A stretch of 64,000 nucleotides of DNA from assembly GCA_963803975.1 (NCBI GenBank), contig CAWDOY010000020.1:17088-81087 (forward strand). Reading direction: 5' to 3'. The DNA is from an uncultured delta proteobacterium. GTDB taxonomy: Bacteria > Desulfobacterota > WTBG01 > CAIYCZ01. The translations under genes and the position numbers were made by a program. Numbering within the stretch: the stretch's first letter is position 1; each line of letters opens with the position of its first letter. The notes under the pieces are model-generated. The model was not told the DNA's origin, ran no database searches, and saw nothing but the letters and a program-made list of their open reading frames with translations. Shown piece by piece: positions 16,642 to 42,800 of this stretch.

Positions 16642-17807
16642 TACAGAACTCCTTTTATACCGCGTACCGCCTGCCTGATTCTGTGTTCATTTTCAACCAG
16701 GGCGAATCTGACATAGCCCTCGCCGTATTCACCAAAACCGATCCCCGGCGAAACCGCCACTTTGCCTTCTTTTAAAAGCACTTTGGAAAAATCAAGTGAT
16801 CCCATCTGTTTGAACTTCTCAGGGATCGGCGCCCACACAAACATGGTTGCCTTCGGCTTTTCTATTTCCCATCCTATCTTATTGAGCCCCTCGACCAGCA
16901 CATCCCGCCGGTTCTTATATACTGCGGTGATTTCCTTAACCGCATCCTGGATTTCGTTCAGGGCAATGATGGAGGCAATCTGGATCGGCTGGAACATGCC
17001 GTAGTCAAAGTAGCTTTTCAACCGTGCCAGTGCCGCGATCATCCGCTGATTGCCCACCGCAAACCCGACCCGCCATCCGGGCATGCTGTAGCTTTTGGAC
17101 ATGGAGAAAAATTCAACGCCGATATCTTTTGCCCCGGGCACCTGCAGCAGGCTGGGCGCCCGGTAGTCATCAAACACCAGGTCTGCGTAGGCAAGGTCAT
17201 GGATGACAAGACATTTATTATCACGGGCAAAATCAACAATCTTTCTAAAAAAATCGAGATCCACCACGGCGGTCGTCGGGTTGTGGGGAAATGATATGAT
17301 GAGCAATTTTGGCTTGGGCCAGGTTCTTTTGACCGCCTTCATGAGCTGTTCAAAAAAATCATAGCCCGTGCCTATGGGAAAGCTCATGAGATCACCGCCG
17401 GCAATAACCACTGAATAGGGGTGGATGGGATAGGCGGGATTCGGCACCAGCACGACATCTCCGGGACCCACAAGGGAAAGGGCCATGTGGCTCAGGCCTT
17501 CTTTTGCGCCCATGGTAACAATAGCCTCGCTGTCCGGATCCAGATCCACATTATAATTTCTGCGGTACCAGTTGGTGATGGCAAGCCGCAATTTATAGAT
17601 GCCCCGTGACACTGAATAGCGGTGGTTTTTGGGATTCTGCACGGCTTCTATCAGTTTATCCACGACCGGTTTCGGCGTCGGGAGATCCGGGTTACCCATA
17701 CCAAGATCTATGATATCTTCTCCTTCACGGCGCGATTGAAGCTTCAAATTGTCTATGATGCTGAAAATATACGGGGGTAGTCTGTTAATCCGTCTGAATT
17801 CTTCCAT
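16641..17807 (-). CDS. PLP-dependent class I/II aminotransferase (AlaC-like)
   Basis: [33 protein letters not shown]. Confidence 0.9.
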
Positions 17808-19516: not shown

Positions 19517-21070
19517 ATGAGCTTTATTACGCAATCTTATGAAGATAGTGAAAAGGGCGGCCTGTATCATGAAATTTCTGAGGACTTTTCCTGCGTCATC
19601 GACAGCGACAAGCATGTGGATGACCAGTTCAACGAAGCCCGTATTTCGGTAATCGGAGCCATGATCAGCCACGATCCGGAGAGCATTGCCGAAGCTGAAA
19701 AGGCGGTTGACACGGTGATGGAGCGCTTTCAAGACAAGACGCATGGCGGCTATTTTTTAAAAGCTGACCGGGAGTGGCGCATTATTGATACCCATAAAAG
19801 CCTGAAAGCAACTGATGGTATATTCGGGATACTCATGCACCTCTACGAGGTGAGCAAAAAGGATGCGTACCTGCTTAAGGCTTTTGATTTTCTGGATGTT
19901 GCCGTCACCAAGGCATGGGATGCGGTACATGGCGGATTCTTCTCCCTGTATCATGAAACCTGGGCTCCGGCAGTAGCTACCAAAGACCTCGCCAGCCAGA
20001 CAGGCATGCTCCAGCACATGAACGGCGCCTGGAAAGACGGGGTTGATTCACCCTATGGCGCCCGGGCAGCGTACTACAGGAAACGGGCGGAAGATTTTGC
20101 TGATCTTATTCTTGACAAAGCTCAGGACCGCAGCCGTGGTGGATTCTACACCTCATTCACCAAAGACTGGCAGCCGCTTGAAACCAGAAAAGACCTGGCA
20201 CAGATTGCCGGCCTTGCCCTTACCCTCTATTTTCAGTATCACAATGCCGGGCCATCCATATGGGGCCCGCGCCGGGGAAGCCATGCATTTACCGGCCGTC
20301 CCTATCCTGCCAGTTACACCTATCTGGGCCCGGCGCCAAGCCTTGACCCGGTAAGCATGAAGGCCTATCGCTACGGCAAAGCGGTTATTGACGCTGCAGA
20401 CCTTTTAATTGAGAAGGGATGGGATGCCGTGCATGGCGGCTTTTACGCGTGCCTCACCGAAGACCTGCAGCCGGCAGATGAAAGCAAGCTCCTTGAAACA
20501 CAGCTTGCGTGCCTGATGGCGCTCAATGTTGCCTTCCGGCTGTCAGGCTTTGAGCGGTTTAAACAGAAAATTACCGCGGGGGTAAAAATAATTGAAGACC
20601 GCTGTTTTGATGAACAGAATGGCGGCGTGTATGCCTCATATGGCCGTGACTGGCAGCCCCGGTCACGCAACAAGGTGTGCGGCCCGAATCTGCTGGTAAA
20701 CGGCATCCTGAGCATGCTCTCGCCCATTGTTACTGATCGTGATGTGACGCGCAATACCCTGCGCATCTGGATTGCTCAGCCGGTGTGCAGCATCAGCCGG
20801 GGCCAGTCAGCACTCGTTTCCGTTACCGTGCAGAATCAGGGTTTTGCCCCAATACACGTCCGCGTCGGTGGATTGAGCACGCCAACCAGATGGATGAATC
20901 CCTCTGAAATGCGTATGGACCTTGCTCCGCACGAGATTAATAACTATCAGCTCAGTATTACGCCGCCTGCAGACATGCCGGCCGGCACCTATCCCTTTGA
21001 GCTCACGGCTGCTCCTGCAGGTGAAGTGTACGAGTATGTGTCTGCAGGAGGGAAGGTAATCATTGAATAA
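19517..21070 (+). CDS. AGE (N-acylglucosamine 2-epimerase)-family alpha/alpha-barrel protein with C-terminal Ig-like domain
   Basis: Repeated WDxxHGGF(Y/F) units; C-terminal VTVQNQG...ITPP..PAGTYP; CAGGAG RBS. Confidence 0.7.
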   Translation: MSFITQSYEDSEKGGLYHEISEDFSCVIDSDKHVDDQFNEARISVIGAMISHDPESIAEAEKAVDTVMERFQDKTHGGYFLKADREWRIIDTHKSLKATDGIFGILMHLYEVSKKDAYLLKAFDFLDVAVTKAWDAVHGGFFSLYHETWAPAVATKDLASQTGMLQHMNGAWKDGVDSPYGARAAYYRKRAEDFADLILDKAQDRSRGGFYTSFTKDWQPLETRKDLAQIAGLALTLYFQYHNAGPSIWGPRRGSHAFTGRPYPASYTYLGPAPSLDPVSMKAYRYGKAVIDAADLLIEKGWDAVHGGFYACLTEDLQPADESKLLETQLACLMALNVAFRLSGFERFKQKITAGVKIIEDRCFDEQNGGVYASYGRDWQPRSRNKVCGPNLLVNGILSMLSPIVTDRDVTRNTLRIWIAQPVCSISRGQSALVSVTVQNQGFAPIHVRVGGLSTPTRWMNPSEMRMDLAPHEINNYQLSITPPADMPAGTYPFELTAAPAGEVYEYVSAGGKVIIE

Positions 21071-22001
21071 GGCTCTGCGTAATAGAACCATGAAATGGCG
21101 CAACATTATTTTTTTTCTCGTCATGCTCTGCTGCTCGCTGAGCTGTCAGCGTTATCTAAAGGGCCTGAGCAGTCCAGCGGTGGTACCGACCATTCCCGGA
21201 GCCTTTTATACCGGCACTGATTCCTGCATACCGTGCCATGATGATATCTACCGGCAGTATAAAAAAACCGTTCACTACCGGATTTCGTCCCGTGAAGTTC
21301 CGTCCGTTGAGCGCGGCTGCGAAACCTGCCATGGTCCGGGGAGCCTCCACGTGAAATCAAAGGGGGCTGTTACCGATATACTGGGCTTCTCCCGTCTCAC
21401 CCCCGCCGAGAGTTCCGAGATATGCCTGCAGTGCCACACCGGCGCACCGACTATGGACTGGCGGGCAAATGTCCATGTGCTCAATGGCGTGGGCTGCAAT
21501 GAATGCCATAAGTCACACAAGGTTACCGCCCCGAAAATGGTCTATCTGGGTGATCCCGAAATCTGCTACACCTGCCATCAGGAAAAGAAGGCCCAGAATG
21601 CATTACCCTCCCATCACCCGGTCCGGGAGGGGAAGATGAAGTGCACGAGCTGCCACAACAATCATGGCTCGGAAAATAATAATTTACAGAAGGACACCCT
21701 GAACGACCTCTGCCTGGAATGTCATGCCGAGTATCAGGGGCCGTTTGTTTATGAGCACGCACCTGCCGTGGAAGACTGCAGTATCTGCCATGAGCCGCAC
21801 GGCACTATTGCCAATAACCTGCTGGTGCAGAATGAGCCTTTTTTGTGTCTGCGCTGTCACAAGGGTCACCAGGTAAACCCGAAAACCGGGCCGCAGCCGA
21901 CCATGGCAGCCCTGCTTACCTCATGCACCCAGTGCCACCCGCAGGTGCACGGAAGCGACCTGCCGTCGCAGCTTCCTCCGGGAAGGGCTTTGACGAGGTA
22001 A
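21063..22001 (+). CDS. Decaheme c-type cytochrome (DmsE/MtrA/GSU2203-like), probable lipoprotein
   Basis: Ten CXXCH motifs counted; N-terminal hydrophobic signal with Cys. Confidence 0.9.
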   Translation: MNKALRNRTMKWRNIIFFLVMLCCSLSCQRYLKGLSSPAVVPTIPGAFYTGTDSCIPCHDDIYRQYKKTVHYRISSREVPSVERGCETCHGPGSLHVKSKGAVTDILGFSRLTPAESSEICLQCHTGAPTMDWRANVHVLNGVGCNECHKSHKVTAPKMVYLGDPEICYTCHQEKKAQNALPSHHPVREGKMKCTSCHNNHGSENNNLQKDTLNDLCLECHAEYQGPFVYEHAPAVEDCSICHEPHGTIANNLLVQNEPFLCLRCHKGHQVNPKTGPQPTMAALLTSCTQCHPQVHGSDLPSQLPPGRALTR

Positions 22002-22095
22002 GCAGGTGCAGAGCTCCGGCTGACGGATCGAAGCGAATGCTCATGTATTGCGGAAAGCACAATACTAATATTTTATGGTGGAGTGAGTACACGCC

Positions 22096-23935
22096 GTGTC
22101 ATATAAAAACATTTTATTGTATCTGACCATATCACTATGCATCTTTTTGGCGACCAATGCAGATGGTGCCGAGGATAAGAAAGCCGCTGCTGACCGGGAA
22201 TTAAGCGTCACGGCCGGTACCGGGTTCCATCAGTTCAATGTCAGCGGTAACCGGAGCACGGTGGGGGAATATGATGATCTCCGGTCCGGGGCTGATGCGT
22301 ATTTCACCCTGCAGGGGCGCGAGGGCAGAAACTTTATTGACGGCAGCGGCCGCTTTTTTTCCGCCAATGACCAGACCTATTCTTTCAACATAGATATGCA
22401 GCGGATATTCCAGACAGCGTTTTCCTATCAAAAATTCACCCACAACCTTGATCATGACCCCCTTTCAAACCAGGACTTTGCAACAGACTTCAATCCTGAC
22501 CAGAGCAACCGTATCCTGATAGAGGAACTGAAAACAGGCAACACCCTGCGGCTGCCCGCGTTTCCCTTTCTGCAATTCAAAATGGACTACCGCAGCTACA
22601 GCAAACGCGGCCACCGCCAGGCAACAACAGTGGCCAAGTGCTCCCAGTGCCATGTCAGCTCACGAAACAAGCGGGTGAACGATACTACCGAAGACCTGAA
22701 ATTTACCGTTGCGGGCACCGCCGGGCCCGCCACCATCCAGTACAGCCATCTGCAGAGGATTTTTAATGAAGGGGCTTCCCCGCCGTACAATAACTACCGT
22801 GACGGTGCTTCATTTTTTCTGGTGAAAGGCTCTGCGCCCTACAGCCTGGTTCCCGACACCAGCAACAGCGTGCACGAAATAAAGCTCCTGACGCGCCTGC
22901 CCCTGTCCTCGTCTCTCTTTGCAAGCTATCAGACCGGAGAGAAAGATAACCGGGATACTAATAATGATATTGATTACAACAACGTAGCAGCGCGCCTCAG
23001 CACGCTCTTTTTCCGCTACTGCACGGCAGATGCGTTTTTTAATCAATACCATATGCACAACTCCACGCCGGGCAGCATTGATCGCAATACCCGGCGCGGC
23101 GGCTTTGACGTAAGCACCAGTTTTATAAAGAAGCTGAATCTTAAATTTTCCTATATCTGGGAAGATATTGACCGGGACAATTTCCAGGTAAATTCAACCA
23201 GGACCCAGACCTACCGTCTTACCGCAAACTACCGGATGCTGCGCAAGCTCAGGCTGCATGTTAAATATCAAAAGACCCGGGTCGGCGACCCGTTCGTCAA
23301 TGAGGACCCGGATGTTCTGCGCCTGGTTCAGACCTCCCTCCCGCAAAGCGCGGATGAGTTCTACAGCTCACTGTCATGGAGCGTGCTGCAGAATTTTTCT
23401 CTCAATTCAAACTTCAGGTATGTTAAAAGCGACAATGACCGCTATCAAGTAGACGAAGACCACTATGAGTGGAACCTGAGTTTCTGGTATGTCCCCGCGG
23501 AAAAAGTCACGATAAGCGGAGCCTACTCGCTTATGGAAACCAGCATTGACTCTCCGCTCTCCTATAAGCGCTATCACCTCAAAGACGCGTCGAGCCTGTT
23601 TTTGTTTAATGAGGCACCCTATGATGACAGCAGCCAGGCCTACTTCCTGTCTGTGAGTTACCTTCTTAATCCAGCGCACCTCCCTTACCGGTGAAGTCAC
23701 CTATACCCGGAGCCGTGCTGAATTTGACTCGCATTTTGACGGTACCAATATAGGGAGCCTTTCTGAACTCAAGATAAACAAGCTGGAAACCGCGTTCGGC
23801 ATCACCTACCTGTACAGCAGGACGATAACGCTGAACGCTAAATACATGTTCCGGGAATATAATGATAAAAATGACCATGGCCTTGACGGGCAGTTCAGCG
23901 GGGTAAGCATGGGGCTCAACTGGTCATTTAATTAG
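22096..23935 (+). CDS. Outer-membrane beta-barrel partner of the decaheme cytochrome (MtrB/PioB- or GSU2204-like) with one CXXCH; frameshift near 23670
   Basis: Signal peptide, VGEYD, HNLDHDP, CSQCH, alternating beta-strand pattern; shifted frame ends GLNWSF. Confidence 0.75.
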
Positions 23936-32185: not shown

Positions 32186-32299
32186 TTACTGATATGTTGG
32201 ACACGGGCTTGGTGAGCAGGTCTGTGCCGGGCCGAGTAATTCAATTATTTCGTCTTCTGAATACGTGATTACTTTTGGCGCTTCATATTCTTTTTTCAT
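32186..32299 (-). CDS. 37-aa RiPP-precursor-like peptide, copy P1: MKKEYEAPKVITYSEDEIIELLGPAQTCSPSPCPTYQ
   Basis: Manual translation; AGAGGA RBS; near-identical to three other copies with mostly synonymous differences. Confidence 0.85.
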   Translation of the reverse strand: MKKEYEAPKVITYSEDEIIELLGPAQTCSPSPCPTYQ

Positions 32300-32344
32300 G
32301 AGATAACATCCTCTTTCTTATCGCGTTTTACGCTGCACCATTCA

Positions 32345-33228
32345 TTATTTCCCAAACCCGAATATAAGCCGTGGCGTGGCGCTCTTTGGACCGTGCATGG
32401 CTGCAGTGCCGTTCAGGTCGATGTCTTCCAGCTTGTAGTAGTAGGTTTTCTATTCTGTGCATTGTCATCAATAAATTGATACGAAGCACCCACGGCTGCA
32501 CCGGCTTTTGCCGGGATGATAGCATCATTTATTTTTATATATTCTCCATTTTCTGATTTCGCACGTAAAATGTTAAACCCGGCATTATCAATTTCTGTTG
32601 CGGTTTCCCAGATAAGCGTAACTTTATTGTTGCCAGGCTTTGCTTCAAATGATGCAAGAGTAATGGCGGTTGCGACAGGAACTGGGATTCTGCCAGCTTC
32701 TGTGTCGTAATAACCGACACTTAATCCGTCATATATCACAAACTCCGTTGCCGATCCGGTGTATATGAAACTAAATAGCGGAGTGTTCGTCGGGAATGTT
32801 CCGGATTCTTCGGGGCTAGCATTTATCTGTACGGCCTGGTAAGGAGGATCAAAACTTGACCAATCATATCCACCTAAAAAAAGATTACCACTTCCAGAGC
32901 TGCGTTTTCCTAAGTTAGAACCAAGATCTGTAACTGTACCAACTAAAATCTCTCCGGGAGTAAGTAATCGCTCAATAACTTCACCCGGAAGTGGATCACG
33001 CCATATTATTGGTTCAGCAGATATCAATAGGTCAAACATATCCCACTGGTACCAATTATTCTCATCTGCATCTCCAATATTGGTATTGTAAAGGAACGAT
33101 ACAGTGAATGTATCAGGTGCAGACGATCGTTCGATCTTTATTGCATCGGTTATATTGGCTGCGTTTGCCACGCCGCCAACTACCAACATCATCATTACTA
33201 CTGCACAAATTGTAATTAACTTTTTCAT
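32345..33228 (-). CDS. Secreted protein C: signal peptide, variable domain, conserved FN3-like C-terminal domain (frameshift near 32445)
   Basis: MKKLITICAVVMMMLVVGGVANA signal; TAITLASFEA...WETATEIDNAGFNILR...YYYKLEDIDLNG...HGPKSATPRLIFGFGK. Confidence 0.8.
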
Positions 33229-33280
33229 TTGAGTTTTCTCTCCCTGTTCCTTGTTAATGATACAGTTTTTTCTTAACAGA

Positions 33281-33343
33281 TCACTGATATGTCGGGCACG
33301 GGCTTGGGGAACAGGTCTGCGCAGGTCCAAGCATCTCTATAAT
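33281..33343 (-). pseudogene. 5'-truncated peptide copy P2 (IIEMLGPAQTCSPSPCPTYQ)
   Basis: Last 20 codons of the peptide plus TGA, fused directly to the truncated upstream gene. Confidence 0.8.
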
Positions 33344-34068
33344 AAAAATAGGTCATCCTGTTTTTGGCAATGTTATCGGTAAAAACATATTTTGCACCTT
33401 TGGTTGCAGAACCCTTTGCAGGAATTATCTCGTCATTGAGTTTCACATATTCTCCATCCGCTGCCTCTGCACGCAGGATATTAAATCCTGCATTGTCTAT
33501 CTCTGATTCTGTTACCCATTCAAGTTTTACGCGGCTGTTGCTTGCCTTGGCAGTGAATAATGATAACTCTATAACGGTGGGAGTAAATGGATCGGCGCAA
33601 CCACCACCACCACCAAACATATCACCATCAAAGTCAATTTTGATTGCGTTGGCACCTGGGCAAACAAGATTTGCATTAAGGTCTGTACTCTTGCCATATT
33701 CTAATGTCCAGTCTCCACTGCTGGAAAAATTTGAGTTGTAGAAACATTAGCTGGATAAGCCGGAATAATACATGGATAAGGAATACACTCATAATTGGGT
33801 GGGTCATCACAACCTGTATAACAAGTGCCTTCTGAGCTTCACTACCTGTGAAAAAAACCAAACTGGTGCTACCCACACCAGCATAAATATTAAAAGTTAT
33901 ATCACAGCGTCCTCCGATTATATGAGTCTTTGTGACATCTGTGCGGAAATCTGTTGTTGATGTTTCAATTCTAAACAATCTATCCTGCGTAAAGTCATCA
34001 ATAACTACTGCCTGGGCAAATCCTGCTGCACAAAAAATAATAGCTGCTGCGAGTAATAGTTTCTTCAT
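33344..34068 (-). CDS. Secreted protein B: signal peptide, variable domain, conserved C-terminal domain (frameshifted; last ~30 codons deleted)
   Basis: MKKLLLAAAIIFCAAGFAQA signal; PTVIELSLFTAK...WVTESEIDNAGFNILR...KNRMTYFY then breaks. Confidence 0.75.
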
Positions 34069-34130
34069 GCGTCCTCCCCCGTGAGTTAAAATTCGTTGTC
34101 AGTTCTGTTTTAATAGACCTACTGTTTTGA

Positions 34131-34244
34131 TTACTGATACGTTGGGCAAGGACTTGGTGAACAGGTCTGTGCAGGTCCAAGCATCTCTATAATTTCATCT
34201 TCTGAATAGGTGATTACTTTGGGTGCTTCATATTCTTTTTTCAT
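34131..34244 (-). CDS. 37-aa RiPP-precursor-like peptide, copy P3: MKKEYEAPKVITYSEDEIIEMLGPAQTCSPSPCPTYQ
   Basis: Manual translation; AGAGGA RBS. Confidence 0.85.
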   Translation of the reverse strand: MKKEYEAPKVITYSEDEIIEMLGPAQTCSPSPCPTYQ

Positions 34245-34276
34245 GGGTAATTTCCTCTCTTAAATTAATTTATTTT

Positions 34277-35159
34277 TTACTTATCAAATATTCCAAGCAT
34301 AAACTTCGGCGTTGCGCTTATCGGGCCATGAGGTGTACCTACACCATTGACGTCTACATCCTCTAAAATATAGTAATACGTTTTCCTGTTCTTTGCAGTT
34401 CTATCTATATAAGAATATTTTGCTCCATCTGTTGCAGAGCCTTTTGCCGGTATCAACTCAGCATTTATCGGCATATACGTTCCCATTTCTGTTTCTGAAC
34501 GATAGATATTGAATGATACATTATCAATTTCTGATTCTGTTTCCCAATTAAGTTTTACGTGGGCATTGCTTGCCTTTGCAGTAAATGAAGATAATGTAAT
34601 TAAAGTTGTTTGCTGTGTAGCAAAAAATGCACTGTTTGCTGTATACGTAAACCGCCGTCATATGTAAAATCAGCAATATGGGCAGGCAAAGGTATATCCT
34701 TGATTTGTTTTTAACATCAACATCGCCTTCTCGCCAGATCTACCGCAACTGCTGCAAACGGTAAGATAAGAGGATCCTGTCTTGTACCCTCCGGTAGGTG
34801 TCTGTACTCTTCAACAAATATACCAAATTCTGACATGTTCTATATGTCTTTTCATGCCCAGCCAGCTGGCATAGTCAATCAATTTCAAACAATTGGTATT
34901 ACCATTATAATTGAATCCAAACGCCTGAATACCAAAATTTGTCAGCCGGTAATAGGATTGTCTGATTTGCGTCTGCTTTAATTTGACACCATCAGTGCTC
35001 CAGGCAGGTGATTGGGCTGTAGAGTAACAGTTAATCCACCCATATGTTTCCATCAGGAAAGCAGACATTTGACTCATCGATTGGAATGGGCCCAATAACG
35101 GCAAATGCCATGGTGGTGGAAAGAAACATAATCCCTAATGCAATAATAATTTTTTTCAT
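34277..35159 (-). CDS. Secreted protein A: signal peptide, variable domain, conserved C-terminal domain (frameshifted)
   Basis: MKKIIIALGIMFLSTTMAFA signal; TLITLSSFTAK...WETESEIDNVSFNIYR...YYYILEDVDVNG...HGPISATPKFMLGIFDK. Confidence 0.75.
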
Positions 35160-35188
35160 ACTATGTACCCCTCTCTATGTTTGGAAAA

Positions 35189-35311
35189 TTATTGATACGT
35201 TGGGCACGGGCTTGGTGAACAGGTCTGTGCCGGTCCAAGCATCTCTATTATTTCGTCTTCTGAGTAGGTGATTACTTTTGGTGCTTCGTAGGTTGCTTTC
35301 TTTTCTTTCAT
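35189..35311 (-). CDS. 40-aa RiPP-precursor-like peptide, copy P4: MKEKKATYEAPKVITYSEDEIIEMLGPAQTCSPSPCPTYQ
   Basis: Manual translation; GGAGAGG RBS; first gene of the array. Confidence 0.85.
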   Translation of the reverse strand: MKEKKATYEAPKVITYSEDEIIEMLGPAQTCSPSPCPTYQ

Positions 35312-35420: not shown

Positions 35421-35649
35421 GATAAATTTTGCGACTTTATAATAACAATAAATAAAATTTAGTATAATATTGACTCCAAATATACTCTTTATTGAACGAT
35501 TTTTAAATATTTCGACTGATATTTCTCTTGAAATGATAAAAATCAGAAATAATCAAGCATATTAGATTGCGCACAATGGAGATATGTTTCATAATAAAAT
35601 CAGGTTAGTGAGCAATGCACATTCATCCCGTTTAAAATATTTTTTTAAG

Positions 35650-36501
35650 ATGCGCCTATTAATTAAAATATTCCTGATTATTTTCTTTTGTTTTACCATT
35701 GCTTTTTATGTTTTTAACAAACCCTACATGCCAGGCATTGATGCCATTACCGGAGGGACTAAAATGATAAATTCCTACAGCGCCCAGGCAGGACAAAAAA
35801 AAGAATTACCTCCCATTGATTCCGCCATACCCGCAAAGACAGAAACAGCGACCTTTGCTCTCGGGTGATTCTGGGGACCTGATTCCCGGTTCGGGAGCAT
35901 TGATGGCGTAATCAGGACGCGCGTTGGATACTCTGGCGGCACCAGGAAAAATCCCACCTACTATAGCCTTGGCGATCATACTGAGACTTTCCAGATAGAT
36001 TACGACCCTGCCAGAATAACCTACGGGCAGCTCCTGGATATTTTCTGGCACAGTCACCAGCCGGACAGGAAATCCTGGTCCCGGCAGTATATGGCGGCTG
36101 TTTTTTACCATACGGATGAGCAAAAAAAGCTGGCCCTGCAGACACGTGATCAGGAAGCCAATCGTCTGGGAACAAAAATCTATACTGAAATTCTTCCCGC
36201 GACCGCGTTTTACCTGGCTGAAGCGTATCATCAGAAATACTATCTGCGGCAGGTGCCTGAGCTGGTGAAAGAATTCTCTGTTCTGTATCCCGATCTGAAT
36301 GCTTTTATTGCGTCAACAGCCGTGTCCCGCGTGAACGGCTATATAGGCGGGTATGGTTCATTGCAGAGTCTGCAGAAAGAAGCAGCTGGCCTCGGCCTTT
36401 CGCCGGCTGGAAGTAAAAGGCTCTTTGAAATTGTTCAGGCACTGGACAAAAACAGCCGCTATGCTGCGCGCGGCAGCGCTTTCTGCCCAGTCCCTTTGTA
36501 A
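35650..36501 (+). CDS. msrA: Selenocysteine-containing peptide-methionine (S)-S-oxide reductase with N-terminal membrane anchor
   Basis: In-frame TGA (35866-35868) in ALG-U-FWG replaces the catalytic GCFWG Cys; the frame continues TRVGYSGG, DHTE, AEAYHQKYYL; selA present in the window. Confidence 0.9.
35869..35905 (+). promoter_or_regulatory. Putative bacterial SECIS element
   Basis: Hairpin TCCCG-GTT-CGGGA starting ~15 nt after the UGA. Confidence 0.55.
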
Positions 36502-36514
36502 TGCGCAGCGCTGA

Positions 36515-36829
36515 TTAAAACCTGCCGCGTTTTTTAAAGCCGCCACCACCGCCGCCTGGCCGTCCCGGCTTTCTTTCTTCATCCCGCGGCCTGGCTTCGT
36601 TTACGACAATGCTCTTGTCAGCGAGTTTGCCGCCGTTGAATCTCTCGATGGCTTCCTGGGCTTCTTTTTCAGTACCCATCTCAACAAAGCCGAAGCCCCG
36701 CGAGCTGCCGGTAAATTTATCTTTAATGATCACCGCAGACACAACTTTTCCGACTTTTTCAAAGTTTTCTTTCAGGTCTTCCTGCGTCACTTCCGGTGCC
36801 AGATTGCCGACATATAGATTCTTACCCAT
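36515..36829 (-). CDS. RRM (RNP-1) RNA-binding protein with Gly-rich tail
   Basis: LYVGNL (RNP2), RGFGFVEM (RNP1), VNEARP. Confidence 0.95.
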   Translation of the reverse strand: MGKNLYVGNLAPEVTQEDLKENFEKVGKVVSAVIIKDKFTGSSRGFGFVEMGTEKEAQEAIERFNGGKLADKSIVVNEARPRDEERKPGRPGGGGGGFKKRGRF

Positions 36830-36871: not shown

Positions 36872-36937
36872 AAAACAAAAGCCCGTGGACCGATAGCAAG
36901 TCCATGGGCTTATAAAAAGCTTTCAAGGGCTTCTATG
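36872..36937 (-). promoter_or_regulatory. Conserved leader motif and terminator hairpin upstream of RRM gene 1
   Basis: CATAGAAGCCCTTGAAAG...AAGCCCATGGAC-TTGCTATCG-GTCCACGGGCTTTT; paralogous copy at 39272-39334. Confidence 0.7.
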
Positions 36938-37063
36938 TCATTATGAACTGTACATCCGCAACCTGCCGAATGTTATTATAAAAAAGGTATCATTAATCCC
37001 CCTGCATGTCAAATTATTATACCGTGCAGGTTTTTTCGTGTGTTTCTATAATAAAATTATGTA

Positions 37064-37332
37064 TAGTGGCTGACAAGTGTTACAACATCGTGGACACCAT
37101 GAAGTGCCAAGAGATCGAAGACTCTTTCTAATATTCTTCATAGAAAAAGGCCATAAATTTCCTGGATTCCTGCTTTCGCAGGTATGACGTAACAACTGAA
37201 ACGTGCTAAAAAAGAGGTCATTCCAGCGAAAGCTGGAATCCAGTGTTCTTGTATTGCTGCAGGGGAATCTATAAAACCTCTTGAGTCAATGCAGTTTGTC
37301 CACGATGTCGTGACACTTGCAAGTAGCCATTA
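37064..37332. mobile_element. MITE-like element with ~33-bp imperfect terminal inverted repeats enclosing an inverted REP-like pair
   Basis: CAAGTGTTACAACATCGTGGACA ... TGTCCACGATGTCGTGACACTTG; inner CTGGATTCCTGCTTTCGCAGGTATGAC (37162-37188) and GTCATTCCAGCGAAAGCTGGAATCCAG (37217-37243). Confidence 0.6.
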
Positions 37333-37337
37333 TTGCA

Positions 37338-37420
37338 CCTAACCCGGACAAGCTGGAACCAAAGCTCGCAAAGCTAAAAACACAAAATTTTCCTGATTTC
37401 TTGAGTTCCAGATTTTTAAT
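37338..37420 (+). repeat. Dispersed repeat, copy 1 (CCTAACCCGGACAAGCYGGAACCAAAG...TTCCTGATTTCTTGAGTTCCAGA)
   Basis: Both ends match the reverse complement of 44489-44620. Confidence 0.75.
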
Positions 37421-37443
37421 TCTCTTTTCAATCCAATGATTTT

Positions 37444-37668
37444 ATGACATTCAGAGAAAGCCTGTTCAGAGTGATGGCAGCGCTGTCCATCATTAACCCG
37501 GTGATTTTTTTCATCTACATAGTTGTTACGGTAGAGTTCAACCGCTCAGATCCAAAGGAATGGGCACTGCTGCTTCTTTACAGCGGCATCGTGTGCGGAA
37601 TGACCTGGGGCATTTACTGGGGCATTAAATATGGCATGGACGTTTACGCCGGGATGAAACAGCGTTGA
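37444..37668 (+). CDS. Small 2-TM membrane protein
   Basis: 74-aa ORF with two hydrophobic segments. Confidence 0.55.
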   Translation: MTFRESLFRVMAALSIINPVIFFIYIVVTVEFNRSDPKEWALLLLYSGIVCGMTWGIYWGIKYGMDVYAGMKQR

Positions 37669-37720
37669 CAGGTCAGTATCTCCTCCAGCCCTGGCAGCAC
37701 ATAAACGCTAAACTTAGCTC

Positions 37721-38118
37721 TTGCATATAGACGAAATCATGCTATACTCAATTTAACCCTTCGCTGACTTAGAATGCCAATTGTTCTTTTTCCCCCCTCA
37801 CAAGGCCTTTGTTGGCGAAGGGTTTTATCATATATAAATTTTTCCTCCATTACATCTTCATTACTCCAAGATTACCGTTTTGTAATCATCATCTCATCTG
37901 CTTGCGCTTATAAAATAATGTTATATACTCTACTCATAATAACCCCTGTTAAACCCCCCGACGGTTTCCCCCTCCATTTTCCGTCGGGGGTTTTTTATTT
38001 TTAAAGTTACGAGTGAAGGTGTCGATATGTAAACTATGCCCCCGGCACGAGAGCATATGTCATTGAACGGCCCCCCCTCCCTATTCCGTGACATACCCCT
38101 CGCCGAGGGTTTTTTATT
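37721..38118 (+). ncRNA. Three tandem candidate sRNAs, each a promoter-like motif plus hairpin with C-rich loop plus U-tract
   Basis: Hairpins 37755-37828, 37951-38002, 38038-38118; -35/-10-like hexamers at 37721-37748, 37902-37929, 38007-38035. Confidence 0.45.
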
Positions 38119-38131
38119 CAGCACCTTATAA

Positions 38132-38171
38132 AACAAACCCCTCAGAAGAAATAACCTCTGAGGGGTTTGTT
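38132..38171. terminator. Intrinsic terminator
   Basis: AACAAACCCCTCAGA-N10-TCTGAGGGGTTTGTT. Confidence 0.7.
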
Positions 38172-38249
38172 GATTTACAATCAGTGAGCTTGTTAATTTA
38201 ATAAAACATGCCCATGGTATCTAATCTCAATTCCAATCCGTTCATCACC

Positions 38250-38405
38250 TCAGCGTAGAAATGATGAAAGTTGAACTGATAACAAATTGTTATTTATCAG
38301 CATGACGGCCCTTACCAATGTTGCTGCCATGGTAATAAATCCCAGAAGAAATAAATAATCCTCTGGTGTGCTGTTGTCTCTAAAATAGGTAACTAACGTT
38401 TTCAT
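38250..38405 (-). CDS. 51-aa single-TM protein, loosely Flp-pilin-like
   Basis: MKTLVTYFRDNSTPEDYLFLLGFITMAATLV...; GAGGAG RBS. Confidence 0.45.
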   Translation of the reverse strand: MKTLVTYFRDNSTPEDYLFLLGFITMAATLVRAVMLINNNLLSVQLSSFLR

Positions 38406-38871
38406 TATTATACAATTCTCCTCTAAGTAAATTTTTACATTTGATTTTAAATAGCACTCTAAACTCGCTGCGGCCTCCAGGTATTTCACGGTATATCCGG
38501 TGAATTTCCGGCCTGTTTAAGATACCATTGATGCCGAGCGTTCCAAGTTGCTAACCGACTGACAAGACGCTAATATTTATAATTCTACCTTTTGAATAAA
38601 CCCCCATTCCTCTAAACAAAACATGGCTTCAGCAACATCCCGGCGCTGCTGTTGCAGCCGGGGAACTGGGGCCAGTCTTACGTTTAGCTTTGGTTAAAAA
38701 TTATTCTGGATGGCTATAAGAATAATTTACGTGGTGCGCGGTTCCTGACCACTCAATCGTATGCGTGGAACATGTGTTGAGGATAGTGAAGTAGATGCGG
38801 GAAGTGAACGTGCCGGAAAAACTTCAAAATAAATTATCAGGTCCTTTATTACTAATACCGGTAGCAGCAAA

Positions 38872-39171
38872 TTAATATCTGCCTCGTTTTCCAGAACCTG
38901 CTCTGCTGGTGCCGCCACGTTCCGGCCGGGGCCTGGCTTCGCTTACGGTGATCTTTTTCCCGCCCAGCTCTCCGCCATTAAATTTCAGTATCGCTTCCTG
39001 GGCGGCTTTTTCCGAAGCCATTTCAACAAATCCAAATCCCTTTGATTGGCCGGTAAATTTATCTTTAATGACTGCTGCGGAAACAACATCTCCGAACTGC
39101 TTAAAGTTGTCTCTCAGGTCTGCTTCAGTCACTTCATCGGTCAAATTACCAATAAAAATATTTTTTGACAT
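38872..39171 (-). CDS. RRM (RNP-1) RNA-binding protein
   Basis: IFIGNL, KGFGFVEM, VSEARP. Confidence 0.95.
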   Translation of the reverse strand: MSKNIFIGNLTDEVTEADLRDNFKQFGDVVSAAVIKDKFTGQSKGFGFVEMASEKAAQEAILKFNGGELGGKKITVSEARPRPERGGTSRAGSGKRGRY

Positions 39172-39271
39172 CTTGCTTCTCCTTCTTCAGTTTTTTACCC
39201 GTGTTAGTTCTTAACCGGATAGCATGGATTTTCACCCTGATCCAGGCAGTGTTTAACCATGCCGCACAAAT

Positions 39272-39334
39272 AAAAAAGCCCTCAGACTTATAGCAAGTCC
39301 GAGAGCTTTCATTGCACTTTCAAGGGCTTCTATG
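39272..39334 (-). promoter_or_regulatory. Conserved leader motif and terminator hairpin upstream of RRM gene 2
   Basis: CATAGAAGCCCTTGAAAG...AAGCTCTCGGAC-TTGCTATAA-GTCTGAGGGCTTTTTT. Confidence 0.7.
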
Positions 39335-39480
39335 CCGGATATGTACGCCCGTGCATATTAAATTCTATACAGCGTGCGTTTTTTAGTTAATAAGGAAAAT
39401 AGCACAATCCTTCCTGCCTGTCAAATTTATAATTCACACACCCACGGGCGCCCGCGTATCATTATCCATGAGAAGATATG

Positions 39481-39714
39481 CTAAGTCGCTTGAATCCTTT
39501 CAATTATCTTCTTCATCGGCTCCCGGAACACTGTGCATTGCGGGCATTTTGCCGCCATAAACTGTTTGGCCTGCTCTCGCTCCTGCTGCGGCATGCCCTG
39601 GAACATGGGCAGCCAGTCATACTCCCAGCAGTTTTTGCCGGCATCGTAAGCCGGACACTGTATGTTGTTTTTCATCATACATTCAGGATTTAATTTCGAG
39701 CACTCATTGGCCAT
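39481..39714 (-). CDS. Small Cys-rich protein (CPA...NCWE...CxxC)
   Basis: Six Cys in 77 aa; GGAGAGG RBS. Confidence 0.65.
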   Translation of the reverse strand: MANECSKLNPECMMKNNIQCPAYDAGKNCWEYDWLPMFQGMPQQEREQAKQFMAAKCPQCTVFREPMKKIIERIQAT

Positions 39715-39817
39715 AGCACCCTCCCCTATTTATTATTTATACATGGAACACTGAGAAACAATTTTTCTAACCCCGATCCCCAAATCCCTAACCCCGATTA
39801 ATGCCTCTATCCAACCA

Positions 39818-42800
39818 CTACAGCGCCACCGTTACAGTCATTTCCTGCGTCGTGCCGTCCTTCTGTTTGCGCTGCACACTGACCTTGACGATTCCTCCCC
39901 GCTGTTTGCCTAAAAGCAGTATCTTTATATCATCTATATCAGTGATTATCCTGCTGTCAATAGCTGTAATCACATCCCCGTCCTTTAGCCCTGCCTTCTG
40001 CGCCGGGCCGTCTTTCATGACTTTCTCGATTAACGACCCCGCTTTTCTCTTTCTTCAGCAGCACCTGGAGCTTTGGACTCTCCGGGGCGGGAATTGGTTC
40101 TGGGAATAATATATAATCTGCCAGGCTTTGATCAATCCCCTGGCCTGAGTCATTGAGGATAAGTGCGCTTGTCGCGCCAATCAGGCGCTGCACCCGTGCC
40201 GGAATACCCCATGCGTACTGCAGGTGGCCGCTGCCGGCAAGGACCACCATCCGGGCATCGGGATATTTTTGCAGGGCCTCTGCTATGCTGTGGGCCATGG
40301 TTTCATCCCACAGGATTTGCGAAAAATAGAAATTATCAAAGCACGTTTTTTTGCTCTGCTCGTGCTGGTAGTAAACCTGCTTCAAGTACTCCCGGTACTG
40401 CTCATTGGTCAGGTCAAGATCAGCCGGCAGCTCTGCCCGCTCCCCGGCGGTCAAAGCATCCATGCCCTTTTCTGAAACCTTTTCTGTGATTTCCCTCCTG
40501 ACATTTAAAGCTATTACCGGGATGGTGTTGGCCCGGGCAAATTGCAGTATGTCCCGGTAGAGGTTATAGTCATAAGCCCAGCGGGGGAAATATTCCGACT
40601 TCTTTAAAAACTCCTCCTCCGTGATTTTTTTATGAACATACTGGTCGAGGTATTTCTGAAACGGCCGCTGAAACATCTCCATGCCGATTATGAGCGGCCG
40701 CTTCTCCTGCAGCATGCGCCGTATTATTTCAAGCTGCATCAGGTGGTCTGCGTAGGTGGTGTGCGATTCACCGATATAGATAATACGCTTATCCCGCACA
40801 TCTTTTATAATAGCATCCAGATCAAGTGAGCTTTTTGTTTTAATGCCGCTGGCGGCAACATGCAGGTCTTCCACGATTCCCTGCTCGGTAGCAGCGCGCT
40901 CTTCTCTGCTGATTTTACCCTGCTCAAAAACGAGCAGCGAATAGTTTCCGTACCTGAATATCTTCCGGTACACGGCTTGTGCTTCACCGGCATTGCGTGC
41001 TTTAAAAACCATAACCACTTTTTTACTGTTCAGGGGATTTTTAGACACCTTCACGACGCACCCGCCTGCAGGCAGTGCCCGGTCAGCAAAAAGCTTCCGG
41101 TAAAAGCTGCCGCTGTCGGATAGAAACAGCACGGAATGTTTTCTCGATATCCGCAAATGTTGTTTCTTTTTCACTTTTAACCGTATAGCCCTGCGCTTTT
41201 AAAAAGCCTGCTGTTTCCCGGTACATTCTTTCGTCCTGGGCTGGTGTGATAACGATACTCTCGCGGTTTCCGATAAAGGCGGATATAACAGGAGCTGCCT
41301 CAGCATCTGTAAGCCTGCGCATCACATCATACTGTTCATCAAGGATTATTTTTATCGGCCGCCCCTTGAATGCTTTCTCGTAATGGGTTACTGCTGCAGC
41401 AGTCTCGATCAGGATTTTCTCTTCACCCTGGTCGGTTATGACCCGGGCAGGCAGTGAGCAGGCAAAAGGCTCTTTATCCTGGAAAATATCAAAGGTTAAC
41501 AGAAAGGCGCTCTCTCTGAAAACAACCTGTGCGTGGGCAAGGGAAAATCCGGGACGCCTTTCCTGTCGAGCCATTGCTGGAAAAAGGATTTCAGATTCTG
41601 TCTGCTGACAGACGCGAAAACGTCACTGATACTATCCCAGGAGGCTTCCTGGTATTGAAATGACGCAATCACATCTTTTAACGACTTGAAAAATAGTTCA
41701 TCCCCCAGCTTCATCCGCAGCATATGGAACACCATGGCGGACTTTCCGTACCCGACAGCTCTTGATGCATAACTGTCAGGCCCTCTGAAGCTGCGCAGCA
41801 AGATTTCATTTGCAGGAGTCACGTAGTTCATGTAGTCGCTGAGCATTTTTTTGCGGTACTCAGCACCGCTGCCTTTAAGATGGCTGTACCACTGGTCAGC
41901 AAGATAGGTGGTGAGCCCTTCCGACCAGTTGCCCCCGGCATAATGTACATACACATGGTTACCAAACCACTGGTGAAGTATTTCATGGCCAAGCGAAGTC
42001 TCAACAATAAACGGGAGCCTTATAACCTGGGAGCCGAGCAGCGTGTAGGTGGGGAGGGAATAGCCGGTCTGGAACCGGTTCTCCACAATGGCAAATGTTT
42101 TATAGGGAAAGGGTCCCAGCAGTGCTTCATATAATTCGATATAGCGTTTTGTATGCGCGAGATAATTATCAGCCAGTTCCCGGTCTTCGGCAAAAAGTAA
42201 CGTTTTCAGGGCAATGCCGTGAAAGGTCTCGGTCCGTGTTACGTATGTTCCTGCTACCAGAGTTATTCCGGGAAGCGGGTGCGGAAAATCAAAAACGATA
42301 TTCTTCAGTCCGTTGCTGGATTTCACCGTTGTTGTTTCAGATTCAGACACTGCTTCAAAATGTTCCGGCACCTCAGCCGTTAGTTTGTAAAAGCACCGGC
42401 CGCCTATTGCCGGGTACCAGTCATGCAGGAGCATAACCCCTTCATTGGATATACTATTGGGTGCCGGTGAGTTTAGAAAGTCACCCTTTTGTTCTGCTGA
42501 ACCAGGAGCAAAGGAAGCGTTATACTCAATCTCAACTACAGTATCGTTTTGCGTATCCCTGATATCGATGATGCCCTGAACAGGGCGCGCCTCTCGTTTG
42601 TTGACGAGAAGTTGCTGAATGGTAAAATCAAGAATATTGATTTTACAGGCTGCGCCTTTCGGCACGCTTATACGCGCGGAGCCCCGGATGGTATGGCCGG
42701 CAGGATCAATGCTGACAATAAGCTCATATACCGGGAGCTGCTGCCCGGCACGCACGGTACCCGGTGCAAAACAAAGAAGCATGAGCACCGCGACTATGCT

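Follow-up and report, generated by a model that had tools for sequence, protein, structure and literature searches.

A family of RiPP-like micro-peptides associated with a candidate C-terminal sorting domain of secreted proteins in an uncultured delta proteobacterium

What joins a family of nearly identical micro-peptides to secreted proteins that resemble one another only at their C-termini? The question is raised by a locus in the genome of an uncultured delta proteobacterium (GenBank assembly GCA_963803975.1, contig CAWDOY010000020.1), of which a stretch of 64,000 nucleotides (nt; positions 17,088 to 81,087, hereafter the window) was analysed. On the minus strand of this window, from position 35311 down to 32186, open reading frame (ORF) reading and sequence comparison give the gene order P4-A-P3-B-P2'-C-P1, where the P genes encode the peptides and A, B, and C the secreted proteins (hereafter cargoes). 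This order, first reported in a preliminary description of the DNA, is real in the assembled sequence. The best explanation, to which roughly even weight is given, is that a conserved and undescribed system couples the maturation of a small peptide, in the style of RiPPs (peptides made on ribosomes and modified after translation), with sortase-like processing of secreted proteins. No described system had been recognised in this architecture at the outset; neither Pfam nor NCBIfam holds a hidden Markov model for the pair of peptide and shared C-terminal domain, and no paper describing the gene combination was found in open-access PubMed Central (PMC) or bioRxiv. What the window contributes is the tie between peptide genes and sorting-domain genes, the definition of the domain, and the fusions between the two.

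All genes of the array lie on the minus strand. P4 (35189..35311) is an intact gene for a peptide of 40 amino acids (aa), MKEKKATYEAPKVITYSEDEIIEMLGPAQTCSPSPCPTYQ, and P3 (34131..34244) and P1 (32186..32299) are intact genes for peptides of 37 aa; all three peptides end in YEAPKVITYSEDEIIE[M/L]LGPAQTCSPSPCPTYQ. The earlier view that every P gene encodes a near-identical peptide of 37-40 aa stands for these three and fails for P2' (33281..33343 including the stop; 20 codons, 33284-33343), a peptide-gene remnant, IIEMLGPAQTCSPSPCPTYQ, whose first 17 codons are gone. Across the genome, tblastn found seven full copies, of which the window has three and contigs C3, C38, C15, and C57 have one apiece; the P2' remnant and, on contig C53, a weak relative with a broken frame were matched as well. 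Paralogue pairs differ synonymously at 9-20 of 37 codons and non-synonymously at 0-6; summed over codons 5-37 of the 21 pairs among the seven paralogues, which are not independent of each other, there are 282 synonymous versus 44 non-synonymous differences. By these codon counts the peptide gene, present in several copies, is translated and subject to strong purifying selection, and because the synonymous differences are many and the protein-level differences few, the paralogues are old and selected rather than homogenised by recombination. Homologues in public protein sets form 69 clusters, all annotated as 'hypothetical' bar one evident misnomer, and neither Pfam nor NCBIfam contains a model for the peptide. 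The consensus K..Y..P...TY.E..I....GPA.T is followed by a short Ser/Thr/Pro/Cys tail; K2, Y5, P8, T12, Y13, I18, G23, P24, and A25 are invariant across genera, E15 and T27 are nearly so, and the last 4-14 residues, rich in Ser, Thr, Pro, and Cys, are variable. In its residue pattern the conserved N-terminal part resembles a lasso-type leader: it carries a YxxPxV motif and a conserved Thr 22 residues apart, in the company of a PqqD gene, and it yields sub-threshold matches to lasso and tryglysin precursor models (for lasso_cyano, E 0.014 and 15 bits against a cut-off of 33).

Proteins A (34277..35159), B (33344..34068), and C (32345..33228) begin, as judged by eye, with the Sec-like signal peptides MKKIIIALGIMFLSTTMAFA, MKKLLLAAAIIFCAAGFAQA, and MKKLITICAVVMMMLVVGGVANA, continue into mutually unrelated passengers, and share a C-terminal domain (hereafter C-domain) of ~105 aa, in agreement with the preliminary description. 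The Fn3-like C-domain lies at 34298-34606 in A, which ends in the tail ATPKFMLGIFDK, and at 32354-32673 in C, which ends in ATPRLIFGFGK; in B (33342-33581) it is truncated. Its AlphaFold model (nine sequences; mean predicted local distance difference test score, pLDDT, 90.5) is a beta-sandwich of which the last ten residues are of low confidence, and its best matches among solved structures are Fn3 domains. No Pfam or NCBIfam model, those for the C-terminal domains (CTDs) of type IX secretion (T9SS) included, matched the C-domain in eight window pieces, six intact cargoes, and seven distant cargoes. Public data contain 589 homologues at E<=1e-5 within one length band, and 107 of 120 listed homologues carry an [AT][TAV]P[RK] motif 5-15 (mostly 7-8) residues before the stop, 92 of these 107 with K or R at the end. 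In the lineage of the window the tail consists of ATP[RK], 6-8 mostly hydrophobic residues, and a K, and is too short for a transmembrane (TM) helix; in distant families the C-domain is followed by a hydrophobic helix and then by an Arg/Lys cluster (seen by eye in genomes G216, G328, G274, and G084). The C-domain occurs about 47 times in this genome. Passengers carry unrelated Pfam domains (DUF1566, LRR, FG-GAP/VCBS, PQQ propellers, DUF4114, and TSP3), and some of the proteins are named 'choice-of-anchor' by NCBI. Because the C-domain sits at the extreme C-terminus of Sec-exported proteins and follows many unrelated passengers, it shows the pattern of a sorting domain.

The functional link between peptide and C-domain that had been proposed for the array is supported beyond it. 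Forty relatives were compared with this genome, and the 45 peptide matches found in them were classed by neighbourhood: 14 lie downstream of a C-domain on the same strand (up to 347 nt away, mostly 50-140 nt), 11 closely precede a C-domain gene (two of them one gene apart), ten lie inside an enzyme cluster (in ten relatives), four are members of a second subfamily, whose tails are rich in Gly/His/Arg, and six lie elsewhere, several of them beside HprK-like or PqqD genes. Thus 25 of the 45 stand beside a C-domain gene, and since there is only one C-domain per 100-300 kb, the contribution of chance to this adjacency is negligible. In the window itself, the four gaps read between peptide and cargo genes, in either order, measure 27-62 nt. 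The pairing recurs in other phyla, at loci found in named metagenome-assembled genomes (MAGs) with the C-domain alignment as query. In Ca. Brocadia carolinensis the order is PqqD, C-domain protein, peptide, HprK-like protein, and C25 peptidase; in a Planctomycetota MAG, three C-domain proteins are followed by peptide, HprK-like protein, NTP_transf_5 nucleotidyltransferase, and C25; and two Coatesbacteria-like contigs carry a peptide between two C-domain proteins. A Chloroflexota MAG has HprK-like protein, C25, C-domain protein, S24-like peptidase, and NTP_transf_5, with no peptide match at that locus. Moreover, two loci of genome G216 encode in-frame fusions in which the peptide comes after C-domain, TM helix, and basic cluster (proteins of 394 and 464 aa), and a third peptide match lies inside an 817-aa open frame. 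A search for longer peptide-fused proteins gave six matches, of which one (P0195) is a real fusion, of a C-domain tail with half a peptide. The strict one-to-one alternation seen in the array does not extend further: this genome has ~47 C-domain matches and seven full peptide genes, and among 79 C-domain loci of the named MAGs only nine have a peptide within 250 nt downstream, four more having one about 1 kb upstream. Because most C-domain genes lack an adjacent peptide gene, a logic of one peptide per cargo is not general.

Several observations on peptide variants and reading frames may be recorded here. The second peptide subfamily has the same leader and a longer tail rich in Gly/His/Arg and aromatic residues (e.g., ...GPANTCGSPGLHEPHGHAWGWRRRHR); it is found at L006 9305-9523 (contig C53 of this genome, apparently frame-broken) and at L047, L048, L049, and L050 in relatives, some copies lying near sulfite-reductase-like genes and none beside a C-domain gene. 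In genus g10 (L061 752-2117 and L021 14395-16208), the peptide tails ...GGPRGVEFD and ...GGPAGIEYP resemble the C-terminal ends of adjacent secreted proteins (...SPEGVEFD and ...NPIGIELD); the adjacent protein has no Fn3-like domain, and an HprK-like gene follows. At three loci (window 32413-33330 on the minus strand, L034 883-1821, and L037 1419-2504), the cargo frame runs without a stop back into the 3' end of the peptide gene before it, out of frame with the peptide, and reads MDLRRPVPQARARHIS... and LVRHRLARQAHV...; the public peptide entries P0063, P0067, and P0069 read that 3' region in a shifted frame. Chance or indel errors may account for these open frames.

In each of five relatives one peptide copy lies within a conserved gene cluster, which adjoins efp and epmA and indicates which enzymes may act on the peptide. 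It encodes a PqqD protein of 106 aa, a 465-aa radical SAM/SPASM enzyme that has a PqqD domain of its own at the N-terminus, an HprK-like protein of 384 aa, a C25 peptidase that resembles PorU and is about 1100 aa long, and an S24/S26-type peptidase (181 aa; no N-terminal anchor by eye); an ABC-2 transporter pair lies nearby and, in one case, an NTP_transf_5 nucleotidyltransferase. Among the genes that the preliminary description had named as candidates for co-inheritance, the RiPP recognition element (RRE) of PqqD type and the radical SAM/SPASM enzyme were thus recovered, and the HprK-like kinase, the C25 protein, and the S24/S26 peptidase were found in addition; B2 peptidase and asparagine-synthetase-like cyclase domains were absent from the cluster proteins, to which that search was confined, the whole genome not being searched. 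This genome carries the same cluster in trans on contig C3 (L029). No peptide gene occupies the 165-nt gap between the PqqD and radical SAM genes there, and the precursors of this genome must therefore all be encoded elsewhere, the window array among them. Family matches were obtained to PqqD (1.9e-9), HprK_rel_A (8.9e-16), Peptidase_C25 (1.9e-90), and T9SS_sortase (6.7e-86), and the radical SAM enzyme combines Radical_SAM, SPASM, and N-terminal PqqD domains. The C25 protein has a signal peptide, and its NYTGHGS and LNCLNG segments align with the catalytic His and Cys regions of PorU (6za2) and of the gingipain R RgpB (1cvr). All named NCBIfam models (PorU, PorU2, StsB, PapB, anSME, the Scm proteins, and HprK-related kinase A) score below their cut-offs, the best for the radical SAM enzyme being StsB (141 bits, cut-off 625) and PapB (117, cut-off 340).

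Two variants of the C25 protein were noted. In the G131 family (C16, L070 4056-7973) an Fn3-like domain lies inside the C25 protein, at residues 245-352 of 1305, and in the G084 family (L066 5133-8411) a CFI-box-CTERM domain forms the end of C25 (NF041770, 97 bits; cut-off 40).

C25 co-occurs with peptide and C-domain. In the 41 genomes formed by this one and its 40 relatives, the peptide was found in 14, C25 in 14, and both in 13; the C-domain was found in 26, including all 14 with the peptide, at 3-48 matches per genome where the peptide occurs and 1-7 in the 12 others. An evenly drawn sample of 301 genomes of the phylum, in which related genomes are not independent and strong C25 matches are those with E<1e-60, contained the peptide in 12, strong C25 in 17 (weak C25 in four more), and the C-domain in 20; C-domain and strong C25 coincided in 16 genomes, C25 alone was found in one, the C-domain alone in four, and neither in 280. 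Further, in distant families a C-domain gene directly adjoins C25, as in G274, G084, G328, G171, G245, G131, and G201 and at the second C25 of G003. The radical SAM enzyme is less widespread, an orthologue being present in seven of the 14 peptide-positive genomes, and it covaries with the peptide tail: Cys directly follows GPA[QH][TA] in 10 of 10 clusters with the enzyme, and where the enzyme is absent from a cluster, that position is mostly M, I, V, or G, the exceptions being one copy in G015 and G201, which has Cys and no radical SAM gene seen in its 17-kb locus.

Gene content, co-occurrence, synteny, fusions, peptide selection, and C-domain fold are what is shown; on top of them a chemistry can be proposed that is drawn from the enzyme families involved. 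PqqD-type RREs bind YxxPx[LV] leaders, and SPASM radical SAM enzymes commonly act on Cys. The RRE would bind the leader of the peptide. The radical SAM enzyme, where present, would modify the Cys after GPAQT, which fits the Cys covariation. The kinase would phosphorylate a Ser/Thr at the start of the tail, and the S24/S26 peptidase is a candidate leader peptidase that would remove the leader; one study reports an RRE-dependent HprK-like kinase that phosphorylates Ser3 of a lasso core (PMC10368454). The exported C25 protein would cleave the Fn3-like C-terminal signal of the cargo and transfer the cargo, in the manner of PorU, to an amine acceptor, which would be the matured peptide or something built on it. 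Processing of the cargo with the peptide as partner is proposed because PorU is a transpeptidase able to use peptides: it is described in PMC4560394 as removing the CTD and joining the new C-terminus to an amine and, when its normal acceptor is lacking, as attaching cargo C-termini to peptides or amino acids from the medium. With peptide genes following the cargo genes, more would be supplied of a partner that is consumed, and one may speculate that the conserved basic residue in ATP[RK] fits a specificity like that of gingipains. In its most specific form, namely that the matured RiPP-type peptide serves as covalent acceptor or anchor for C25-loaded cargo without a type IX translocon, and that this is shared by sulfate-reducer-type bacteria, anammox Planctomycetota, and Chloroflexota, the proposal is tentative and on balance doubtful. 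A different contact, donor-strand complementation in which the peptide would complete the Fn3 domain, was considered and dropped, the model being already a complete sandwich; a complex prediction of C-domain with peptide scored 0.00 and is used neither for nor against any reading.

Several observations weigh against coupled maturation and sorting, or against parts of it. The genome of G008, 93% complete, has nine peptides and neither a C25 nor a radical SAM enzyme that could be found, and G018 has only a weak C25 of a different type. The C-domain occurs in four of the 301 phylum genomes that lack C25 and in 12 of the 27 relatives that lack the peptide, and a peptide gene adjoins a C-domain gene in only ~5 of ~40 cases in this genome and in the nine of 79 MAG loci mentioned above. 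In the fused forms the peptide would lie on the cytoplasmic side of the TM helix, which fits maturation and not a simple periplasmic acceptor. Additionally, C25 scores fall under the NCBIfam cut-off for PorU, and the window locus itself may be dead, as its three cargo genes are frame-broken.

Comparison with known systems places the proposed system between several of them. Like T9SS, it has an exported C25 protein that is about 1100 aa long, resembles PorU in architecture, and retains the His/Cys dyad, and Sec-exported cargoes with unrelated passengers and a beta-sandwich of ~100 aa at the extreme C-terminus; the use of peptides as acceptors by PorU, in the account cited (PMC4560394), is a further parallel. 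Unlike T9SS cargoes, the C-domain matches no type A or type B CTD model, the hosts are Thermodesulfobacteriota, Planctomycetota, and Chloroflexota, and T9SS has no RRE, kinase, or peptide genes. The C25 orthologue of G003, which clearly satisfies Pfam Peptidase_C25, scores 288.9 bits against a cut-off of 420 for NF033707 (T9SS_sortase) and 239 against 450 for NF052324 (PorU_rel_Nterm). PorV (NF033710) had no match in this genome (G000), its control matching in one genome only and below cut-off there, and the search for SprA (TIGR04189), which gave no match either, was uninformative because its control matched nowhere. Membership in T9SS was rejected on the lack of CTD-model and PorV matches and on the PorU score below cut-off.

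The maturation genes recall phosphorylated lasso peptide clusters (the paeninodin type, and bsf of Bradymonas sediminis), which (PMC10368454) have a discrete PqqD/RRE, an HprK-like kinase, and an ABC exporter, often NTP_transf_5, and a YxxPx[LV] leader with a Thr near its end. Unlike those clusters, the one described here contains no B2 peptidase or asparagine-synthetase-like cyclase and adds C25 and S24/S26 peptidases and C-domain proteins. The peptide tails of 4-14 residues are too short and mostly lack the Asp/Glu that would form a ring, and the Tyr stands 22 residues before the conserved Thr, compared with Tyr(-17) and Thr(-2) in that paper (PMC10368454). A lasso peptide was rejected on the absence of cyclase and B2 peptidase from the cluster and on the short tail. 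The SynChlorMet cassette also combines a PqqD relative, an HprK-related protein, and a radical SAM/SPASM enzyme, and weak matches to ScmC, ScmD, ScmE, and ScmF were obtained; all four equivalogs score far below cut-off (ScmD 21/100, ScmE 127/400, ScmF 86/400, and ScmC 12.5/125 bits), so that membership is not indicated. We know of no C25 peptidase or sorting-domain proteins in that cassette, for which no paper was found in open-access PMC or bioRxiv. In the seven of 14 peptide-positive relatives with the radical SAM enzyme, radical SAM/SPASM and RRE stand beside a Cys-bearing precursor, an arrangement that recalls sactipeptide/ranthipeptide clusters, although the best named models (StsB and PapB, above) score far below cut-off. 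Lastly, like the signals of LPXTG/sortase, PEP-CTERM/exosortase, and MYXO-CTERM systems, the C-domain is a homology region that ends many unrelated secreted proteins, is followed in distant lineages by a TM helix and an Arg/Lys cluster, and co-occurs with one candidate processing enzyme. It differs from such tripartite signals in being a whole Fn3-like domain with a hydrophobic stretch of only 6-8 residues in the lineage of the window, in having C25 as the candidate enzyme, and in a matured small peptide being part of the system. The system would work like sortase/PorU-type sorting joined to a kinase-bearing, lasso-like maturation set and is a member of neither.

The condition of the array raises a further question, namely whether its cargo genes function at all. 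As a correction to the preliminary description, A, B, and C are each split over more than one frame in the assembly. When A is compared by tblastn with the intact homologues of two relatives, it shows at least three frame changes (frames 2, 3, 1, and 3). B has at least two, its C-domain ending at about residue 80 of 104 and adjoining P2' one base out of frame. C has a single frameshift at 32446-32449, which an intact public homologue of 296 aa (P0095, 92% identity to C) spans and where contigs from other runs, of other organisms, read NRKTYYY in frame. It is possible, and somewhat short of an even chance, that A, B, and C are true pseudogenes here and that only the peptide genes, or nothing, still work. 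This fits the total of at least six frame changes and the truncated domain of B, the stops or frameshifts in ~10 of the ~38 C-domain copies of the genome, and the breakage of further accessory genes: the HprK-like gene (L029 9098-10268) is split in two, a second C25 paralogue beside a C-domain gene on contig C18 (L030 5772-9272) is in at least four pieces, and the NiFe hydrogenase (L001 10868-12376) is fragmented. It fits less well with the long housekeeping genes of the window, which are intact, with the junctions inspected, which are mostly single-base doublings without long homopolymers, as from unpolished repeats, and with the intact versions of the cargo genes in relatives. No public sequencing run contains more than 0.13 of the words of the array, no RNA run is listed, and contigs of four public runs align to it only as short pieces from relatives. 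At about even odds, the array is an outlying locus of the conserved system, either partly decayed or badly assembled. Loss of function would concern the window locus only and is compatible with coupled maturation and sorting as the best explanation of the system.

As to the system, three other explanations were weighed, each of which is weak as a full account because of the synteny with enzymes across phyla and the age and selection of the peptide paralogues. In the first, the peptide is an ordinary RiPP: it is matured by phosphorylation and Cys modification, S24/S26 and C25 cut its leader, and the product leaves the cell to act as an antibiotic, signal, or metal binder, the C-domain proteins being neighbours for another reason such as envelope co-regulation. 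The standard parts are present (RRE, radical SAM/SPASM, kinase, peptidase, and ABC-2 exporter), other RiPPs are known to have several precursor copies encoded in trans, and the Gly/His/Arg-tailed peptide subfamily lies away from C-domain genes. Such a product is nonetheless unlikely to be the whole story: the presumed core would have only 4-14 poorly conserved residues behind a nearly invariant leader, several phyla have C-domain genes within or next to the enzyme cluster, in-frame fusions join the peptide to C-domain proteins, and an exported PorU-like enzyme of 1000-1100 aa would be an odd leader peptidase.

In the second, suggested with the array itself, the constant block of C-domain and peptide acts as a recombination handle that allows passenger cassettes to be duplicated or swapped, the alternation being a by-product. 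Local features agree with this. At the B-P2' junction a truncated C-domain is joined to half a peptide gene, and in P0195 the tail of a C-domain runs into the second half of the peptide, so that, on the sequences of these two joints, deletions do occur at the block; passengers differ between close relatives, which match at the DNA level in the constant parts only; and the block is, as had been stated, AT-rich (GC content 0.36-0.43, versus 0.52-0.59 in the left flank and about 0.50-0.53 in the right). The paralogues, however, differ synonymously at 9-20 of 37 codons and hardly in protein, and the same pairing with the same enzymes recurs in other phyla at low DNA similarity, a synteny that a handle leaves unexplained; as an account of the system it is given little credence. 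Least probable of all, to the point of being nearly negligible, is that the peptide ORF is an upstream ORF or attenuator for the cargo gene that follows, which would suit the 11 of 45 peptides upstream of a C-domain gene and the three cargo frames open back into a peptide's 3' end, and is contradicted by the strong protein-level conservation of the peptide, by the copy beside RRE and modifying enzymes, by the 14 of 45 copies that lie after and not before a cargo, by P1, the last peptide of the array, which precedes a terminator, and by the lack of Rfam matches.

Regarding expression, the array had been placed between one promoter and one terminator. The terminator part is borne out by one strong hairpin after P1 (32114..32154, minus strand; intrinsic-terminator-like, 17 pairs, and a T-rich tail). 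The sigma-70-like promoter match upstream of P4 (TTTAAA-17-TATATT at 35479..35507, minus strand) must be considered weak, as it agrees at 9 of 12 positions and the region contains 19 matches of this quality against 11.9 expected. An Rfam scan over the whole window gave zero matches.

Divergent from the promoter region of the array, on the plus strand (35584-36501), lies a methionine sulfoxide reductase A (MsrA) gene with an N-terminal membrane anchor and a Pfam match to the selenoprotein MsrA helical domain. Its single in-frame TGA (35866-35868) lies within the catalytic motif FALG-U-FWG, and the product is for this reason likely a selenoprotein. Behind the peptide copy on contig C3 (L001 8019-8913, about 110.0-110.9 kb), on the same strand, comes an MsrB-like gene that has a signal anchor and is split in two frames, and exported Msr genes thus stand beside two of the seven full peptide copies. 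Beyond MsrA, about 3 kb (36900-39950; GC about 0.40-0.45) hold no ORF >100 aa bar two genes for RRM-type RNA-binding proteins (36515-36829 and 38872-39171, both on the minus strand), and Rfam has no match in this stretch. On the other side of the array, at 21063-23694 (plus strand), a multihaem cytochrome with paired CXXCH motifs and MtrC/MtrF-like domains is followed by an MtrB/PioB-type porin, possibly an extracellular electron-transfer module.

If the link between peptide and C-domain holds, these genomes contain a new C-terminal sorting domain, present in tens of copies per genome and represented by no database model, with a candidate processing enzyme outside the Bacteroidota. RiPP machinery would then work for protein sorting instead of producing a natural product that is released free. 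The link would help to annotate 'hypothetical' surface proteins of sediment sulfate reducers and anammox bacteria, and the role of PorU-like enzymes outside type IX secretion would become directly testable. Should the matured peptide indeed be the acceptor, the system would be a natural protein-RiPP conjugation system.

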